A DNA stretch of 64,000 nucleotides from Escherichia phage vB_EcoM-Ro121c4YLVW: the sequence record NC_052654.1. The stretch is one strand, 5' to 3'. Numbering within the stretch: position 1 is the first letter of the stretch; every line of letters starts with the position of its first letter. The position numbers and the translations under genes are program-made. A model generated the notes under the pieces. That model did no database searches, was not told where the DNA came from, and saw nothing but the letters and a program-made list of their open reading frames with translations. Below, piece after piece: positions 3,429-51,470 of the stretch.

Positions 3429-4264
3429 CATATCTGGTATTGGGCGGTAATGGACAACTGGGACAAGCTTTACGTAAAGTGGCTCCTTCAAATGTATCTT
3501 TAATTTATCCTAAAGAACGTGTAGATATTACAAATTTTGAAGCTGTGCGAAACGCTATTGTTGAAGATTATGTAGATGGTGTTATTAATTGCGCTGCTTA
3601 TACGGCTGTAGATAAAGCAGAACATGATTTTGCTACTGCTTTGGCTGTTAATTCCTACGGCCCTGCAAACATTGCAGCAGTGTGCAGTAAACTTAAAATT
3701 GATTTTGTGCATATTTCTACAGACTATATTTTTAATTACTCTCATCCTATTTTTGAAGATACTACACCTAACCCAATAAACAATTATGGGTATACGAAAG
3801 AACTTGGTGAAAAAATGGTGCGAGGAGTTAACCCAAATGCATATATTATTCGAACAGCCTCGGTATATAGCGAATTTGGAAATAACTTTCTAAAAACCAT
3901 GTTGTCTCGCTATAATGATGGACAACGTGATTTTATTATTGTTGCTGATCAGTTCTCTTGTCCAACATATGCTCCAGATTTAGCAGAAGCTATTTTTGAA
4001 GTATTAAAAACAGGTTGGTCAAGGTCTGTTAAGACTTACCATTTTGCAGGAAGCCATCTTATTTCTTGGGCGGAGTTTGCGGAAAAGATCTTGACACAGA
4101 TGCCAGAACCTGTTAAGATATCGGCGGTATCAGCTTCAACCTATAATGCTCCAGCAGCACGTCCGGTGAAGTCACAATTAGTAACCAGTCACTATCTTAC
4201 AAAATCAGATTTAAATAAAGGTATTGAACGGTCTTTAGCAGTATTACTTAATAAGGAGAGGTAA
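3422..4264 (+). CDS. rfbD: dTDP-4-dehydrorhamnose reductase
   Basis: LGGNGQLG N-terminal Rossmann motif, length and position after rfbC. Confidence 0.75.
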   Translation: MLTYLVLGGNGQLGQALRKVAPSNVSLIYPKERVDITNFEAVRNAIVEDYVDGVINCAAYTAVDKAEHDFATALAVNSYGPANIAAVCSKLKIDFVHISTDYIFNYSHPIFEDTTPNPINNYGYTKELGEKMVRGVNPNAYIIRTASVYSEFGNNFLKTMLSRYNDGQRDFIIVADQFSCPTYAPDLAEAIFEVLKTGWSRSVKTYHFAGSHLISWAEFAEKILTQMPEPVKISAVSASTYNAPAARPVKSQLVTSHYLTKSDLNKGIERSLAVLLNKER

Positions 4265-4524
4265 TGGAATTTGTAATTTTTGGTAAACCTAACTGTCAAT
4301 TTTGCGAAATGTCAAAACAACTATTAACCATGCGCAATAAACAGTTTGAATATTTAAGTCTTGACCAAGACTACGATTTAGAATCAATGACTAAAACAGT
4401 TGTTGATCTTACCGGAGTTCCTCCACGCACATTTCCACAAATTCTGTCTGAAGTGAACGGGGAGGTAACATACGTAGGCGGTTTTACCGAACTGCGTGAT
4501 CTCATGGCTCAAATTGCGGAGTAA
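4264..4524 (+). CDS. glutaredoxin/NrdC-like thiol-disulfide protein
   Basis: CQFC redox motif near N-terminus, about 86 aa, similar architecture to T4 NrdC. Confidence 0.55.
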   Translation: MEFVIFGKPNCQFCEMSKQLLTMRNKQFEYLSLDQDYDLESMTKTVVDLTGVPPRTFPQILSEVNGEVTYVGGFTELRDLMAQIAE

Positions 4525-4529
4525 CACTT

Positions 4530-4679
4530 ATGAAAAGTAAACAGAAACGTAAGATCTTTTCTCGTGCTTTGGCAAATGAGCTGAAGTCCAACATAAAGAA
4601 AACGAAACCAAAACGTGAAACTTCTCCAGAACATCTGTTGTTTAATGAGTTGGATCACGGAGTAGGAGACGACGAATAG
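4530..4679 (+). CDS. hypothetical small basic protein
   Basis: 49-aa ORF filling gap between glutaredoxin and lysozyme genes. Confidence 0.3.
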   Translation: MKSKQKRKIFSRALANELKSNIKKTKPKRETSPEHLLFNELDHGVGDDE

Positions 4680-4686
4680 GAAGTAA

Positions 4687-5187
4687 ATGGCTAAAGTAGT
4701 AGATGAGTTTGATATGCTACGAGTCGATGAAGGACTGAAGCTTACTGTTTATCAAGACCATCTTGGTTATTGGACAGTCGGCATAGGACACCTTCTGACT
4801 AAAATAAAAGATAAAGCAAAGGCTATTCAAATCTTAGATAATCTCCTTGGTCGTAAGACCAATGGAGTTATCACAGAAAAAGAAGCCCGTCAAATCTTTG
4901 CTGACGATGTTGCAAAAGTGAAGAGAGACATAAAAAACAGTGCTATCTTATCACCAATCTATGATAAGGTGAGTGATACTCGTAAATTGGGAATAATCAA
5001 CATGGTTTTCCAGTTGGGGTTAAAAGGTGCTGAAGGGTTTAAAAATAGCTTGACTTTAATCAGCAATGCATATTATACTCAAGCAGGTAAAAACATGCGT
5101 AAAAGCCGATGGTATAGCCAGACGCCAAACCGTGCTGAACGAGTAATTAAAGTTCTGACTTCTGGAACTTTAGATGCTTACAACTAA
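4687..5187 (+). CDS. T4-type lysozyme (endolysin)
   Basis: DEGLKLTVYQD...GYWTVGIGHLLTK...NMVFQLG...AKSRWYSQTPNRAERV closely parallels T4 gene e lysozyme. Confidence 0.9.
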   Translation: MAKVVDEFDMLRVDEGLKLTVYQDHLGYWTVGIGHLLTKIKDKAKAIQILDNLLGRKTNGVITEKEARQIFADDVAKVKRDIKNSAILSPIYDKVSDTRKLGIINMVFQLGLKGAEGFKNSLTLISNAYYTQAGKNMRKSRWYSQTPNRAERVIKVLTSGTLDAYN

Positions 5188-5190
5188 TAA

Positions 5191-5206
5191 AGGGGCTTCG
5201 GCCCCT
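5191..5206 (+). other. GC hairpin (tetraloop TTCG) between lysozyme and phoH; possible attenuator/stabiliser
   Basis: aggggcttcggcccct, no strong T-run. Confidence 0.3.
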
Positions 5207-5224
5207 TCTAAAAGGAGTGCTACT

Positions 5225-5983
5225 ATGGGAAATAAAACCGCAGCTAAAACACAACGGCAGAAACTGGCTAATTCAGCAAAGATTGAAAGCCGTTATGCAG
5301 CAAAAGCGGTAGGTAATGACGATTACCGTTTAGATGAATTTATGCCTGAAGGGGACCAAAATAAGATTGTTCAAAGCATGATTTGGAATGATCTGACTGT
5401 TGTAAATGCTCCGGCAGGGACTGGTAAAACCTCTGTTGCTTTATGGAAAGCTTTGCAGATGCTTCGTTCAGGAGACTTCCGTAAACTACTTTTTATCAAG
5501 AACCCTACTGAAGTCGGAGATGACCAGATTGGTTTCTTGTCTGGGGATAAAACAGATAAACTAGCAGCACACTATGAATCTACAAAACGTATTTTCCAGC
5601 AATTCATGACAGCCAACAAATTGGAAAACGATATTGGATCAGGTAAGATCGAATTGAATATTCCTAACTATTTGTTGGGGGCTACCCTGGATAATACAAT
5701 CGTCATTATTGACGAAGCACAACTCATGTCAACAGAAACACTTAAACTTCTTATTGAACGTGCAGGTATTAATACGCATGTTATTGTATTAGGCGATGTT
5801 CGCCAGACATATGCAATTAAAAAACGTAGCAATGGTCTGCATCAAATTTTGGAACTTTTATATCCAGAAAATGAAGAAGGTGTTCGTGAGCCAATTGTAG
5901 ATTTTATTGGATACGTTGAACTGACAACGGACGATAATAAACGTGGACGTTTGTCTAAACTGATTACTGAAGTGTTTATTTAA
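5225..5983 (+). CDS. phoH: PhoH-like ATPase
   Basis: Walker A APAGTGKTS, Walker B IIDEAQ; start chosen at ATG after AAAGGAG (alternative 5174). Confidence 0.8.
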   Translation: MGNKTAAKTQRQKLANSAKIESRYAAKAVGNDDYRLDEFMPEGDQNKIVQSMIWNDLTVVNAPAGTGKTSVALWKALQMLRSGDFRKLLFIKNPTEVGDDQIGFLSGDKTDKLAAHYESTKRIFQQFMTANKLENDIGSGKIELNIPNYLLGATLDNTIVIIDEAQLMSTETLKLLIERAGINTHVIVLGDVRQTYAIKKRSNGLHQILELLYPENEEGVREPIVDFIGYVELTTDDNKRGRLSKLITEVFI

Positions 5984-46807: not shown

Positions 46808-46916
46808 TCACTTTTTCAATCTTTTTTATTTTCTTTTTGCTTGCTATATATAAAAGAAAGGGCTATCATCTTTCTACCGCGCCAACCAGGGCGCACATCA
46901 AAGAAAGGGCGATACC

Positions 46917-47120
46917 ATGACAACTACATTACACCTTATGCACTCATTGGGCTGGCAAGGCGGCACGGTGCACCAGGTAGCAAGTGCAACGGGCTTAAAG
47001 GTTGAAACCGTTCTCAACCTGGGCGATCATAAGGTGGAAGAGATAGATCATTTTGATACGTTCGCAAATGGTTATCTATGGGCTTGCAGTGGCGGCGGGG
47101 CGATATGTATTTTTGGTTAG
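46917..47120 (+). CDS. hypothetical small protein (only + strand gene within the leftward block)
   Basis: ORF track 67 aa; weak RBS. Confidence 0.35.
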   Translation: MTTTLHLMHSLGWQGGTVHQVASATGLKVETVLNLGDHKVEEIDHFDTFANGYLWACSGGGAICIFG

Positions 47121-47154
47121 GTGTCCTATCCTGGCAAGAAAACAAAAAATAATC

Positions 47155-47183
47155 TTGACAAGCCCAGGGATCGGGCTTATACT
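47155..47183 (+). promoter_or_regulatory. sigma70-type promoter with no ORF downstream
   Basis: TTGACA-N17-TATACT; palindromic spacer. Confidence 0.5.
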
Positions 47184-47189
47184 GTTTTA

Positions 47190-47290
47190 CATACAGAAGA
47201 GGAAGCGCCACCCCACGGCGTAAAGGCGGGGCTAACATACCAGGGGGCACTGGTTGGAAGGTTGATCGCCGGTAGGCTGGGCGCTATATA
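47190..47290 (+). ncRNA. candidate small non-coding RNA
   Basis: GC-rich segment with local hairpins just downstream of the promoter, ends near an A/T-rich stretch; no ORF. Confidence 0.25.
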
Positions 47291-47537
47291 TTTGTAAAGA
47301 AATGTAAAGATAAAATAATCGCTTGCTTTCCTGGCTGGATCTGTTATTCTTATTACATGGCGAGGGGACACGGGAGCGCGAGACAAACACCACCCCTGCG
47401 CGTCATTCTCTAAATGAGAATGATTATCATTTACCTTATCAAATAAGAATCAATCTCATTTATAAACCTAAATGCGAATCATTATCATTTGCATTTCCAT
47501 ATGAGAACTCTTCTCATTCCCATCTGCATAAATTTTT

Positions 47538-47740
47538 GTAAACTTTAAATTTTGCTTTTGTACTTTCATTTTTGTAAAAGCAAAAAAACTTTAAATACTG
47601 TGGGCGCGCAAAATTTTTAAAATTTTCCTTGACTTTTGAGTTTTGTTTTGTATCTGACATTTTAAGATAATTTTCCTAAACTTTAAATTTTGGTTTTCAA
47701 CTTTCACTTTTGTAAATTCTTAAAAAGTTTAAATAATTTG
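47538..47740. repeat. two about 63-bp direct repeats rich in A-tracts plus short TTTGAGATAA repeats (iteron-like)
   Basis: Copies at about 47538-47600 and 47677-47740. Confidence 0.55.
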
Positions 47741-47958
47741 AGGGATTTTTGAGATAATGGATAGTGGGAATTTGAGATAACCTTTAATCTTATTGGCAGA
47801 CCTTCAGGAAGCCACTTAGATCGAATCCTAGCAATGCAAACTGAAAAAGACAAGTGTTTGTATAGGACAAAATAATAGGCTCTCTACGGTGCTGTAGGAG
47901 CCTTATTTCTGTGCTACAAAGTGACACCTTTGTTCTAAAAATGAAAAAAGTTAAAATA

Positions 47959-48501
47959 TCACAAATATCGTCTTTGCGGTATTTTGTCTGGGAAAAGTAT
48001 TTCGATCAGTTTATTATGATATTTGCCTAAAAGATTCTGCCCTTTCCAGGTGGCAGGGTTTAGCACCCCTGGTTCATACATCCCCATTCCAATTCCGTAA
48101 ACCTTATCGTAGGGGCTTGCTTCAACAAACGTTTTGTATTGGTAAAGGTGTAAGTCTGCATACAAATCTGGATTCTGTACATATTTCAAGCATAAACCTC
48201 GCATAACAATACGCTCACGGTTCTCTTCCCACATATCATTATTAAAACCAGATACCGCTCGACCCATACGTTTGTAGTATGCTTGTTTCCTCTCGTTGTC
48301 ACGTATAGTCGAGTGATCAAGGATAGCTGCTGCAATCGCATGATCCTTGAACAGCAAAGCCTTACGCCACATCATATATTGCTCAACACAACAGAAAGTC
48401 TCATTGTAACCTGGTTCAGTTTCTGTAAAGGGTGCAATATACCAATTACTAAACACATCTTTATGTGAAAAGAAGAATACATATTCATCAGTTATTCTCA
48501 T
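47959..48501 (-). CDS. NADAR (YbiA-like) domain protein
   Basis: FFFS...FSNW, CVEQYMMWRKA, KRMGR, FVEASPYDKVYGIG match the NADAR signature. Confidence 0.7.
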   Translation of the reverse strand: MRITDEYVFFFSHKDVFSNWYIAPFTETEPGYNETFCCVEQYMMWRKALLFKDHAIAAAILDHSTIRDNERKQAYYKRMGRAVSGFNNDMWEENRERIVMRGLCLKYVQNPDLYADLHLYQYKTFVEASPYDKVYGIGMGMYEPGVLNPATWKGQNLLGKYHNKLIEILFPDKIPQRRYL

Positions 48502-48689: not shown

Positions 48690-49055
48690 TTAATCCATCC
48701 ACCAGTAGCCATAAACTGCGTCTGCGTCGATGAGTTTGTGTTTGTTGTTCCGCATGTAGTCTAAGATAAGTAGACGTTTATTGTATCTGGAGAGATTATG
48801 ACCCTCTTTTCCGCCATAGTCAAAATATTTTGCAAGATCTTTACACTCAAACAAAATCAGTTCGGGAGTTTCTTCACACTGGTCTGTCTGGTACACTTGA
48901 CGAATGATCATGTATACATCGTCGTCTTCCGCTAAATGCTCTACTGGTCCACATCCAGCAGGAACAAATTCATAGTCCCATCTGATCAGATGTTTCTCTA
49001 CTGCTTCAAAGAAATCCATCCTTTCGTTGCGCATAATTTGAACGTCAACTAACAT
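48690..49055 (-). CDS. hypothetical protein
   Basis: ORF track 121 aa. Confidence 0.45.
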   Translation of the reverse strand: MLVDVQIMRNERMDFFEAVEKHLIRWDYEFVPAGCGPVEHLAEDDDVYMIIRQVYQTDQCEETPELILFECKDLAKYFDYGGKEGHNLSRYNKRLLILDYMRNNKHKLIDADAVYGYWWMD

Positions 49056-50251
49056 GTTTCCTCCTGTAATGTTCCACCATAAAGTTTATAAATGTTTTGT
49101 ATTGAGGCCATGCAAGATAACTCTACTGTTTCTGTGTAGCCATCTGGCATAGAATATTTGCTCACTGCTTCCGTGTGAAGGACACGCTTACAACGCTTTT
49201 CTGCATCTTTGCATTGCTTCACAGTAGGGAAGTGCCACACTTGGACCTGTTTCATAGTAAACACATTACGACTATTTTGTTTTTTGATACGGCGATCACT
49301 ATTATTGGCAATTCCAAATTTCAAAGCACAGAGAATACCTTGTTCATCATGAATGTGGTTAATGTAACATTGTTGTTGTGTCTGGTTAGCACATTGCGGA
49401 CAACCAGTGCCATGATTTAACAAACCACTGGCACGTCCTATTTGTACCCCATGTTTCTTACATCCATATTTAAACTTACCTAATCTTACAGACGGTTTCC
49501 CGATCCAACCTACCCAGATATACCCTTTCCTTTCTACTGCCTTTTTTACCCTATAGGTAATCTGTGCTTCTGTGTAATGACAGTTAGTTGCACAACGGCA
49601 AGGAATCTTCCCTTGTTTAAGGTCATTCCCTGCGACATAAAACTTACCATCACACACCCCAGCTTGCACATACTCATCGTGAGAGCAGGCAGGACACTCT
49701 ACACACCATAAAGAATCGCGGCCTCGTTTTTTATCTGTTTTAGTGAAGATTGTACCCTCTTTAAACTTTCCTGTATTAATGAAGTCTTGTATGTGCTGAT
49801 CGTCTGGAAGTATTTTAGAATTCCTAGATCTTTTGTTACCGCATTTAGGACAACCACTACCACCCTTAAGATTATGAAATGTTAATGTTCGCCATTCCCC
49901 GTGCTCAGGACAAAGGTTGATCATCTTTGTATGTACACCTATAAACTCTCCATTAATGCCTAAAATCTTGATTCCCTTAGCTTCAGCAATAGGCTTACAT
50001 TCCGAAAGGTAATAATCTAGGTTTTTACTGTTGTCTTGTCTTGCTTTCTCATTTTTGCACCTAGGGCAACCAGACTTACCACGTTTAAAATTGGCAAATG
50101 TGGATGTTCTCCACTCCCCATGATTAGGGCAGAAGTTGATCATCTTCGTGTGCACACCTTTAAATGGCTCTACAATCCCTATAATCTCATATCCTTTAGC
50201 TTCCGCTATTGGTTTACATTCTCCTATATACTGTTCTAACGTCTTCGCCAT
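49049..50251 (-). CDS. multi-zinc-ribbon protein with internal tandem duplication; possible nuclease-like C-terminal domain
   Basis: Two about 80-aa repeats ending CPxHGEWRT..F.N.K.G.SGCPxC; further CxxC pairs; C-terminal FGIANNSDRRIKKQNS region. Confidence 0.5.
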   Translation of the reverse strand: MAKTLEQYIGECKPIAEAKGYEIIGIVEPFKGVHTKMINFCPNHGEWRTSTFANFKRGKSGCPRCKNEKARQDNSKNLDYYLSECKPIAEAKGIKILGINGEFIGVHTKMINLCPEHGEWRTLTFHNLKGGSGCPKCGNKRSRNSKILPDDQHIQDFINTGKFKEGTIFTKTDKKRGRDSLWCVECPACSHDEYVQAGVCDGKFYVAGNDLKQGKIPCRCATNCHYTEAQITYRVKKAVERKGYIWVGWIGKPSVRLGKFKYGCKKHGVQIGRASGLLNHGTGCPQCANQTQQQCYINHIHDEQGILCALKFGIANNSDRRIKKQNSRNVFTMKQVQVWHFPTVKQCKDAEKRCKRVLHTEAVSKYSMPDGYTETVELSCMASIQNIYKLYGGTLQEETC

Positions 50252-50293
50252 CTTTATCTATCCTCTCTCCCTATAATCTGAAGTCAATATAAC

Positions 50294-50314
50294 AAAACCC
50301 GCCGAAGCGGGTTT
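50294..50314 (-). terminator. Rho-independent terminator (minus strand)
   Basis: cccgccgaagcggg hairpin then T-run on minus strand. Confidence 0.55.
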
Positions 50315-50330
50315 AGTTATTTGTGCTGTA

Positions 50331-51470
50331 TCAGAACACGCTACCCAGTGTAGTGGAACGTTGTGTTACAGGCTCCAGCACCACTCGCAGAGTGTTTCCT
50401 GGTGTAGTGCTCATCACCAGAATCTTACCACCTTCAATCAGATCACAAGTTAGACCATCAGCAGTTGCACACAGATCAATATGTGGATCGCCATCTTCAT
50501 CCAGGATAACATAACTGTTGGTTTCCATTGCTTCCACTTCATCATCTTTCAAACTTTGCAGATAGATGTTCAGGGAACAAGCACCCGACAAAAACTTAGT
50601 AGGGGTGAAGTCGTGCCAGTTATTGATCCAATTCACCTTCAGGGTTTTGCCATTAGCTACGATAGAAGCCACATTCCATTTAGCATCGTTGCCTAAAGAA
50701 ATACCCATCATTTCCAGACATTCTTTAAAAGTCATTTTTGGATAGAAATTCAATTCTTCTACAATACCTTGAATAACATCAAAAGACAACTCTGTACTAA
50801 CATCCCATAAACGTTGGAAGTTATCTACGTGCTTTTTATTTACCAAGTTCTTATCCAAGTAATCTAACATAGTTTCACTAGACAGTTTATCGTAATTGAA
50901 ACTGTAATAGATACGACTAGGACGGTTTACAAAATATTCCGAGATATAACCACTATTTTTAGTGAGGATGTAAAGTTTATTCCCACTTCCTGTTCCATCC
51001 AACAAGGTCAACAGTGCTTCCTGATCTTCTTTCTTAGCGTACACTTTATCAAATTCGTCAAATAAAACAACAGCACGATCTGTAATTTTACTCATAAATT
51101 CTAAGAAGCCAGCATCTGTGTAAGGCTGTGTAACCAAAATGGTTGGAATACCTAAACCTTCTGTGGACATTAGAGACATGCTAATCAGTTTAGCTAACAT
51201 CGTCTTACCACTGCCCTTTGTCCCTGTCAGTAACACCCCAGTATTTTTACCTTCTTTACTACGACGAGCAAATGTTTTAATAACATGTGCGGCGCGGTCT
51301 TTAGTTTCCCCATAAAGAGTGTTCGGAAGAGAGAAACTTTCGCCACGCACTAAAGAGTAGTTACCGTGCGGATCGCAGTTGACAACCCAAACTCCAGCAG
51401 GAAGTTTATTAGCTTCAACGCCATATTCCTTATTTACAACCGCTACATCTCCAAAAATAGTGTATTTCAT
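50331..51470 (-). CDS. AAA+ ATPase
   Basis: Walker A GTKGSGKT, Walker B VVLFDEFD; 379 aa. Confidence 0.65.
   Translation of the reverse strand: MKYTIFGDVAVVNKEYGVEANKLPAGVWVVNCDPHGNYSLVRGESFSLPNTLYGETKDRAAHVIKTFARRSKEGKNTGVLLTGTKGSGKTMLAKLISMSLMSTEGLGIPTILVTQPYTDAGFLEFMSKITDRAVVLFDEFDKVYAKKEDQEALLTLLDGTGSGNKLYILTKNSGYISEYFVNRPSRIYYSFNYDKLSSETMLDYLDKNLVNKKHVDNFQRLWDVSTELSFDVIQGIVEELNFYPKMTFKECLEMMGISLGNDAKWNVASIVANGKTLKVNWINNWHDFTPTKFLSGACSLNIYLQSLKDDEVEAMETNSYVILDEDGDPHIDLCATADGLTCDLIEGGKILVMSTTPGNTLRVVLEPVTQRSTTLGSVF

Follow-up and report, generated by a model that had tools for sequence, protein, structure and literature searches.

The window analysed here, a stretch of 64,000 nucleotides from the genome record NC_052654.1 of Escherichia phage vB_EcoM-Ro121c4YLVW, comes from a phAPEC8-like coliphage of the genus Phapecoctavirus, subfamily Stephanstirmvirinae. 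The reading frame of 400 codons singled out in the first-pass annotation is found in the open reading frame list at the same position, runs on the minus strand and ends in a TAG stop codon (Table 1). It is flanked by an AAA-ATPase gene upstream (50331-51470) and by a conserved gene for a protein of 121 residues downstream (48690-49055). Its product matches PHROG 681, a family named 'endonuclease', with an E-value of 5.6e-79, and the Pfam profile CapR scores 98.6 bits on the whole protein, where it aligns to four stretches. Phage ABPW7 carries a 100% identical gene, and the copies in DE16 and ECO340P1, with 99.4-99.6% identity, are annotated as 'putative endonuclease'; over the surrounding 4 kb or so, the window shares 98.6% identity with phage vB_EcoM_DE16.

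Table 1. Features of the putative endonuclease gene and its borders (positions in the window; aa, residues of the 400-aa protein).
Feature	Position	Strand	Details
Terminator-like hairpin	50295..50314	(-)	After the upstream AAA-ATPase gene; pattern scan and sequence
Shine-Dalgarno-like GGGAGAGAGGA	50261..50271	(-)	9 nt 5' of the endonuclease ATG; read from sequence
Endonuclease gene, CapR-homology array / T5orf172-type GIY-YIG (putative)	49049..50251	(-)	400 aa; ORF list
Start and stop codons of the endonuclease gene	ATG 50251-50249; TAG 49051-49049	(-)	
Module 1, A-type	50051..50239	(-)	aa 5-67; putative ligands C41, H44, C62, C65
Module 2, A-type, duplicate of module 1	49835..50020	(-)	aa 78-139; putative ligands C114, H117, C134, C137
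Module 3, B-type, canonical CapR	49574..49807	(-)	aa 149-226; C186-x2-C189 … C218-x-C220
Module 4, A-type, adjoins the nuclease domain	49385..49570	(-)	aa 228-289; C264, H267, C284, C287
GIY-YIG-fold domain, T5orf172/MUG113 type	49052..49384	(-)	aa 290-400; includes FGIANNSDRR…
RBS (AGGAGGAAA) and ATG of the downstream 121-aa gene	49053..49065	(-)	Sequence; phiWec190 empty-site alignment

The hairpin behind the ATPase gene forms the 5' border of the inserted endonuclease gene, and the 3' border is formed by the ribosome-binding site and ATG of the 121-residue gene, which sit inside the last codons of the endonuclease gene. Scans for tRNA genes, Rfam families and tandem repeats around the gene all came back empty, and a promoter scan returned fewer sigma-70-like sites than shuffled sequences did, so that no promoter is claimed. 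A phmmer search of all six-frame open reading frames of at least 60 residues in the window for paralogs recovered only the protein itself. Likewise, tblastn finds one copy of the gene in the identical genome ABPW7, an apparent match in a 'second place' being probably the internal repeat aligned to itself.

Several features of the wider neighbourhood are recorded here in their own right. The operon of the endonuclease gene adjoins about 1.1 kb (46810-47950) with only short overlapping reading frames, none of them convincing, and scans of it for tRNAs, Rfam families and tandem repeats found nothing; in the equivalent stretch relatives annotate a repeat_region and a terminator. Next to it, 47959-48501 on the minus strand encodes a NADAR-domain protein of 180 residues (Pfam E-value 3.4e-35), whose gene is variously named 'GTP cyclohydrolase II', 'YbiA-like N-glycosidase' and 'NADAR family protein' across records. 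A patch of 100 nt in this gene (48260-48359) has 66-67% identity to phAPEC8 and tuntematon and 99% to ukendt, and is a second small mosaic patch. Along the window (1-64000) the sign of the GC skew flips at about 18 kb, at 34-36 kb and 46-48 kb, and again at about 54 kb; these switches track blocks of genes on opposite strands, and the endonuclease gene lies in the minus-strand block from about 48 to 54 kb.

Most of the protein consists of repeated modules. Local alignment of residues 1-80 with residues 81-160 scores 240, as compared to 24.9 ± 4.8 (maximum 56) in 1000 shuffles (z≈45). The DNA contains the corresponding direct repeats (49858-49945 / 50077-50164 and 49955-50002 / 50174-50221) with a period of 219 nt and 77% identity, and copies 1 and 2 have a module period of 73 residues at the protein level. 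The tandem duplication proposed in the first-pass annotation thus stands, except that its second copy, placed there at residues 88-150, lies at about 78-139. The 'further CxxC/CxxxC pairs' mentioned there are also present, and they turn out to belong to two more homologous modules, bringing the total to four. When segments 1-75, 76-149, 150-225 and 226-292 are scanned singly against Pfam CapR (PF21817, cut-off 24.2 bits), module 1 scores 31.0 bits and module 2 scores 28.8 bits (28.5 and 25.0 bits, respectively, with DUF723), module 3 reaches 55.5 bits (E-value 6.5e-15), and module 4 stays below the cut-off with 21.6 bits and is matched by the module HMM at 5.7e-35.

The modules follow the order A-A-B-A, where the A-type modules 1, 2 and 4 carry a C-x2-H … C-x2-C pattern, a DUF723-like variant, and the B-type module 3 carries the CxxC … CxC motif of CapR. 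Its two cysteine pairs are separated by a spacer of 28 residues; in the published motif they are 24-26 residues apart (PMC8096241). Module 3 contains three further cysteines, C183, C200 and C224. Across 42 homologs, C186 and C220 are invariant and C189, C200 and C218 are conserved in at least 90%, and the four candidate ligands of module 4 are invariant in all 42 of the full-length homologs, in which the ligand positions of the modules are in general unchanged or almost so. By these matches the modules are CapR-homology/DUF723 zinc-finger domains, which would bind zinc and DNA, and the earlier suggestion of a modular metal- and nucleic-acid-binding protein is borne out at the computational level.

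Modules 1 and 2 are 68% identical, the highest value for any intragenic pair among the six alleles inspected, and outside the gene they come closest to the single N-terminal module of phage tuntematon (67%). As the two modules are closest to each other and then to this single module, the additional copy most likely arose by in-frame recombination between repeats, converting an A-B-A array into A-A-B-A. The duplication probably changed or lengthened the recognised site.

An AlphaFold model of the full-length protein (49052-50251) has a mean pLDDT of 91.3 and a pTM of 0.46, and this combination of high per-domain confidence with a low overall value is what independently folded beads on a string would be expected to give. 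In the model, an A-type module is built from a helix, three strands, a second, short helix and then a helix capped by the CxxC motif. The first pair of ligands is located at the turn of a beta-hairpin, and the second CxxC lies at the N-terminal end of a helix (helix 63-75 for C62-C65, 135-145 for C134-C137 and 285-288 for C284-C287). Since the second CxxC is placed at the start of a helix, the predicted secondary structure suggests a treble-clef-like arrangement rather than the two-knuckle zinc ribbon, and the label 'zinc-ribbon' given to the modules in the first-pass annotation had to be dropped: the profile Zn_Ribbon_TF reaches 12-14 bits against a cut-off of 29. The 'treble clef' profile DUF4379 likewise remains below threshold (15 bits versus 24.5). 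Foldseek searches with the full-length model repeatedly returned non-significant matches to dsRNA-binding domains (Loqs, R2D2, DGCR8, PKR, DRB4; all E>0.03), a resemblance that probably reflects merely a shared alpha-beta3-alpha topology.

The last module is followed by a domain that lies just below the Pfam thresholds, scoring 18.5 bits with T5orf172 (PF10544, cut-off 20) and 20.1 bits with MUG113 (PF13455, cut-off 22.3). Both families belong to the GIY-YIG superfamily. When 53 non-redundant homologous domains are searched at E≤0.01, 17 match T5orf172 and 11 match MUG113, with a best E-value of 4.6e-6, and none of the other Pfam families recurs among them. The domain is retained at the C-terminus in 120/120 homologs among the matches listed. 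Invariant in the alignment of the 53 domains are Y296, K311, G313, R321, E351, G371, E374 and T375, and Y296 (YIN), K311-F-G313 (KFG), R321, E351 and E374 are invariant in the 42 full-length homologs as well. The domain is modelled with a pLDDT of 95.9 in the order beta-beta-alpha-beta-alpha-alpha, which yields the three-stranded sheet flanked by helices of the GIY-YIG fold. A search of PDB sequences with the domain profile found no solved structure; its only match, TUP1 (E-value 0.22), was rejected as spurious.

Based on the order and spacing of the motifs, Y296 would correspond to the tyrosine of GIY, K311-F-G313 to YIG, R321 to the arginine of helix alpha-1 and E351 in helix alpha-2 to the catalytic glutamate. 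We take Y6, R27 and E75 of I-TevI to be the counterparts of Y296, R321 and E351. By the same reasoning E351 may be equivalent to E180 of Odn, a protein of phage ICP1 whose T5orf172 domain was demonstrated to be a Glu-dependent nuclease (PMC8263062). The position of the alpha-1 His/Tyr of classical GIY-YIG enzymes is taken by a glutamine (Q325). Profiles, alignment and model together point to a GIY-YIG fold with conserved core residues, and hence to a putative nuclease, as had been guessed for the C-terminal region, for which GIY-YIG had been named as a candidate.

The replacement of the alpha-1 His/Tyr by Q325 could also be read as a sign that the nuclease domain is inactive or vestigial and that the protein acts mainly as a sequence-specific DNA-binding regulator. 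CapR, with which the module family was founded, represses transcription (PMC8096241), and I-TevI also acts as an autorepressor (cited in PMC8096241 and PMC10448857). However, CapR lacks a nuclease domain, which is retained in all of the listed homologs here, with invariant Tyr, Arg and Glu and a low dN/dS (see below), and Odn is an active nuclease although it also lacks the alpha-1 His/Tyr (PMC8263062). We consider a CapR-like repressor highly unlikely.

Comparison with related phages reveals allele replacement at this locus. When the window is aligned with phAPEC8, tuntematon and ukendt, the two flanks and the final 300 nt or so of the gene are 95-100% identical, and only across about 49360-50330 does identity fall to 40-75%. 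The alleles found at the locus encode proteins of 332 residues (A-B-A), of 394, 400 and 402 residues (A-A-B-A) and of 486 residues (A-A-A-B-A), and in the alleles of 3A1_SA_NWU and phiWec179 the nuclease domain is just 33-36% identical to that of the window. Module-type strings are used for the six inspected alleles only; A/B labels assigned to distant homologs by iterated HMMs ('BAB' and the like) were discarded, as the two profiles converge. In other phapecoctaviruses the same intergenic site is thus occupied by a second endonuclease lineage (OR062524.1, 2051-3511; LC739533.1, 2541-3554), whose nuclease domain shares 33-36% identity with that of the window gene, whose arrays consist of 5 or 3 modules and whose B module is of a 'CPDNV…' type; its flanks are 98.5% identical to the window (ten records among the matches listed).

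One relative, phiWec190, has an empty site. Only 45 bp with a hairpin and a ribosome-binding site separate the flanking genes there, the equivalent of the hairpin being followed directly by the ribosome-binding site of the downstream gene. The flanks are 94-100% identical up to both borders, leaving a clean indel of about 1 kb. In phiWec179, a close relative of phiWec190, the site is occupied, as it is in all other inspected relatives, and among the Phapecoctavirus-like matches listed phiWec190 is the only one with a span short enough for the gene to be absent.

Between alleles, dS amounts to 1.25-1.45 in the module region as compared to 0.03-0.12 at the 3' end of the gene, and dN/dS is 0.16-0.26 in the module region and about 0.2 also over the whole nuclease domain. 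Both parts of the protein are under purifying selection. Diversifying selection on the modules in situ was considered and is ruled out by these dN/dS values together with the near-saturated dS. Since dS in the modules is near saturation, in contrast to the 3' end, and dN/dS is low, the divergence of the modules results from recombination of old alleles and not from adaptation in place.

These values also bear on the reading of the gene as a remnant of a homing endonuclease gene that is decaying and no longer functional. Such genes are expected to degenerate once fixed, and in two public records (vB_EcoM_01 and MRostami-2023b) the gene is seemingly disrupted. The 'disruptions' are, however, runs of N and not mutations, and the apparent deletions were rejected. 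The runs lie inside the gene at about 3640-4040 of PP129558.1 and about 4330-5240 of OQ031492.1, where they mimic deletions in BLAST coverage tables, and may stem from assembly failure over the repeated modules or from masking. Moreover, the reading frame is intact and preceded by a good Shine-Dalgarno sequence, dN/dS is about 0.2, and the metal-ligand and catalytic positions are invariant, which leaves a remnant extremely unlikely. It is the invariance of the catalytic positions in combination with purifying selection that speaks against both the remnant and the regulator.

The observed domain architecture, fold, core residues, purifying selection, empty site and replacement of alleles at a single locus together argue for a free-standing homing endonuclease gene of the T5orf172 branch of GIY-YIG enzymes, in which the zinc-module array would recognise the site and the GIY-YIG domain would cleave; we consider this the likely explanation. 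Zinc binding, DNA binding by the modules, cleavage, target and homing are steps that we infer from these observations. The gene lies between conserved genes and is present in phiWec179 and absent from its close relative phiWec190, and the mosaicism is centred on it, as seen from the collapse of identity, the contrast in dS and the second nuclease lineage. This is the pattern of presence, absence and allele replacement of a free-standing homing endonuclease gene, and in that computational sense the homing-endonuclease-like role raised in the first-pass annotation gains support. On the other side, the T5orf172 and MUG113 scores below the cut-off and the lack of a solved structure retrieved by the domain profile count against it.

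Mechanistically, four independently folded, zinc-stabilised CapR-homology modules, arranged A-A-B-A as 'beads on a string', would bind an extended DNA site and tether the C-terminal GIY-YIG-type catalytic domain, which would then cut nearby DNA. During co-infection with a relative without the allele, the genome of the latter would be cut near the junction of the ATPase gene and the gp012-like gene, and repair of the break from the carrier genome would copy the gene and some of its flank into the relative.

The near-universal presence at the locus among the relatives listed makes the gene more 'fixed' than a classically sporadic homing endonuclease gene, and it would also fit with a domesticated targeting nuclease that benefits the phage, either similar to Odn or as a weapon in competition between phages (marker exclusion). 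The zinc array would then aim the GIY-YIG domain at the DNA of a competitor phage, a satellite or the host and would not serve the spread of the gene itself. In line with this, almost all members of the genus among the matches listed have the gene at one fixed locus, its module array and nuclease domain are both under purifying selection, and several deeply diverged alleles (module dS 1.25-1.45) are maintained in near-identical backbones. Odn provides a precedent, and odn-like T5orf172 genes occur in the phages Mt1B1_P17, Muut and Inny of the same subfamily (PMC8263062; PMC10448857). Nevertheless, the DNA-binding part consists of the CapR/DUF723 modules usual for homing endonucleases, whereas Odn uses a domain taken over from a satellite. 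Moreover, no external target emerged as a candidate, and both the clean empty site and the way in which the cassette sits between genes are typical of selfish homing endonuclease genes. Domestication is on balance unlikely, and the two roles are not mutually exclusive.

A further idea, which we regard as quite unlikely, is that the modules act as a combinatorial array for DNA recognition, every module of about 65 residues reading a short sub-site of its own. If so, the GIY-YIG cutter would stay constant and be re-targeted whenever modules are gained, lost or swapped, amounting to natural 'zinc-finger nucleases'. The old alleles at the single Phapecoctavirus locus would then reflect a frequency-dependent conflict and not simple selfish homing, with the allele of each co-infecting phage directed against genomes that have a different allele or lack one.

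Both the architecture and the way it evolves through repeats have already been published, and the domain family is already in Pfam. Records of relatives already name the gene or its alleles 'endonuclease' or 'putative (homing) endonuclease', so that its discovery value is small. What is gained is a firm annotation for a gene that appears as 'hypothetical protein' in many phage records, together with a compact natural series at one locus of nearly identical coliphage backbones: an empty site, arrays of 3, 4 and 5 modules and two nuclease lineages. Such a series should be useful for learning how CapR-type modules read DNA and for testing homing by T5orf172 enzymes. In the literature examined there is no demonstration of homing by the T5orf172 branch; nuclease activity has been shown for the domesticated Odn.

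Amongst known systems, the structure-specific GIY-YIG nucleases SLX1 and HIGLE resemble the window protein at the level of the fold only, with a sequence identity of 12-16%. They serve in repair in eukaryotes, have a RING/PHD partner domain and lack a site-specific array of zinc modules. In I-TevI and the Seg proteins the nuclease domain is N-terminal. I-TevI and the Seg family of free-standing endonucleases of T4 therefore differ from the window protein in their reversed domain order, and they bind DNA via helix-turn-helix or NUMOD-type modules and not via a CapR-type zinc array. I-TevI does possess a zinc finger, which is located in the linker and regulates catalysis instead of binding DNA (PMC10448857), though two direct DNA contacts are cited for it (PMC8096241).

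The origin-directed nuclease Odn (Gp88) of ICP1 is closer, as its GIY-YIG domain is of the T5orf172 type, has the conserved Arg and Glu and likewise lacks the alpha-1 His/Tyr, and it is the sole member of this branch for which Glu-dependent cleavage was shown within the literature examined (PMC8263062). It differs in being a domesticated defence gene directed by a RepA_N domain captured from its satellite target, without targeting by zinc fingers. On the side of the modules, CapR, the capsid operon repressor of the Vibrio cholerae satellite PLE, compares best to module 3, with a score of 55.5 bits and the shared CxxC … CxC motif, the cysteines of which are needed for DNA binding by CapR (PMC8096241). 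Unlike the window protein, CapR is a repressor of 15.5 kDa without a nuclease domain, and its spacing is 24-26 instead of the 28 residues in module 3.

The closest counterparts are the putative homing endonucleases of ICP1. The definition of the CapR homology domain goes back to Netter et al. (2021; PMC8096241), who showed by experiment that CapR binds DNA in a cysteine-dependent manner and linked the domain to the T5orf172 putative homing endonuclease genes of this phage. According to Barth et al. (2023; PMC10448857), most T5orf172 homing endonuclease genes bear one or several CapR/DUF723/DUF4397 zinc-finger domains, for which these authors use the name 'beads on a string'; the phapecoctavirus gene itself is not named in that study or its supplements. 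Some differences are apparent: the ICP1 proteins share only about 27% identity with the window protein, which comes from the Stephanstirmvirinae coliphage lineage, its A-type modules have C-x2-H … C-x2-C in place of CxxC … CxC, and its nuclease domain is divergent, falling just under the Pfam T5orf172/MUG113 cut-offs. Nonetheless, tblastn ties the window protein directly to the ICP1 genes annotated as 'putative homing endonuclease', and gp174, gp165, gp121, gp53 and gp130 of ICP1 as well as a protein of Vibrio phage Helene likewise combine an N-terminal array of zinc modules with a C-terminal T5orf172-type domain. In ICP1 gp174, a repeat-mediated in-frame deletion of 228 bp has been described (Barth et al., 2023; PMC10448857), which resembles the degenerate in-frame repeats of 219-nt period in the window gene. 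The same study found arrays to be swapped relative to the nuclease domains and the genes to lie at boundaries of genetic exchange, and the window gene is alike in its variable number of modules, in the swapping of arrays against nuclease domains and in its position at a boundary of sequence exchange.
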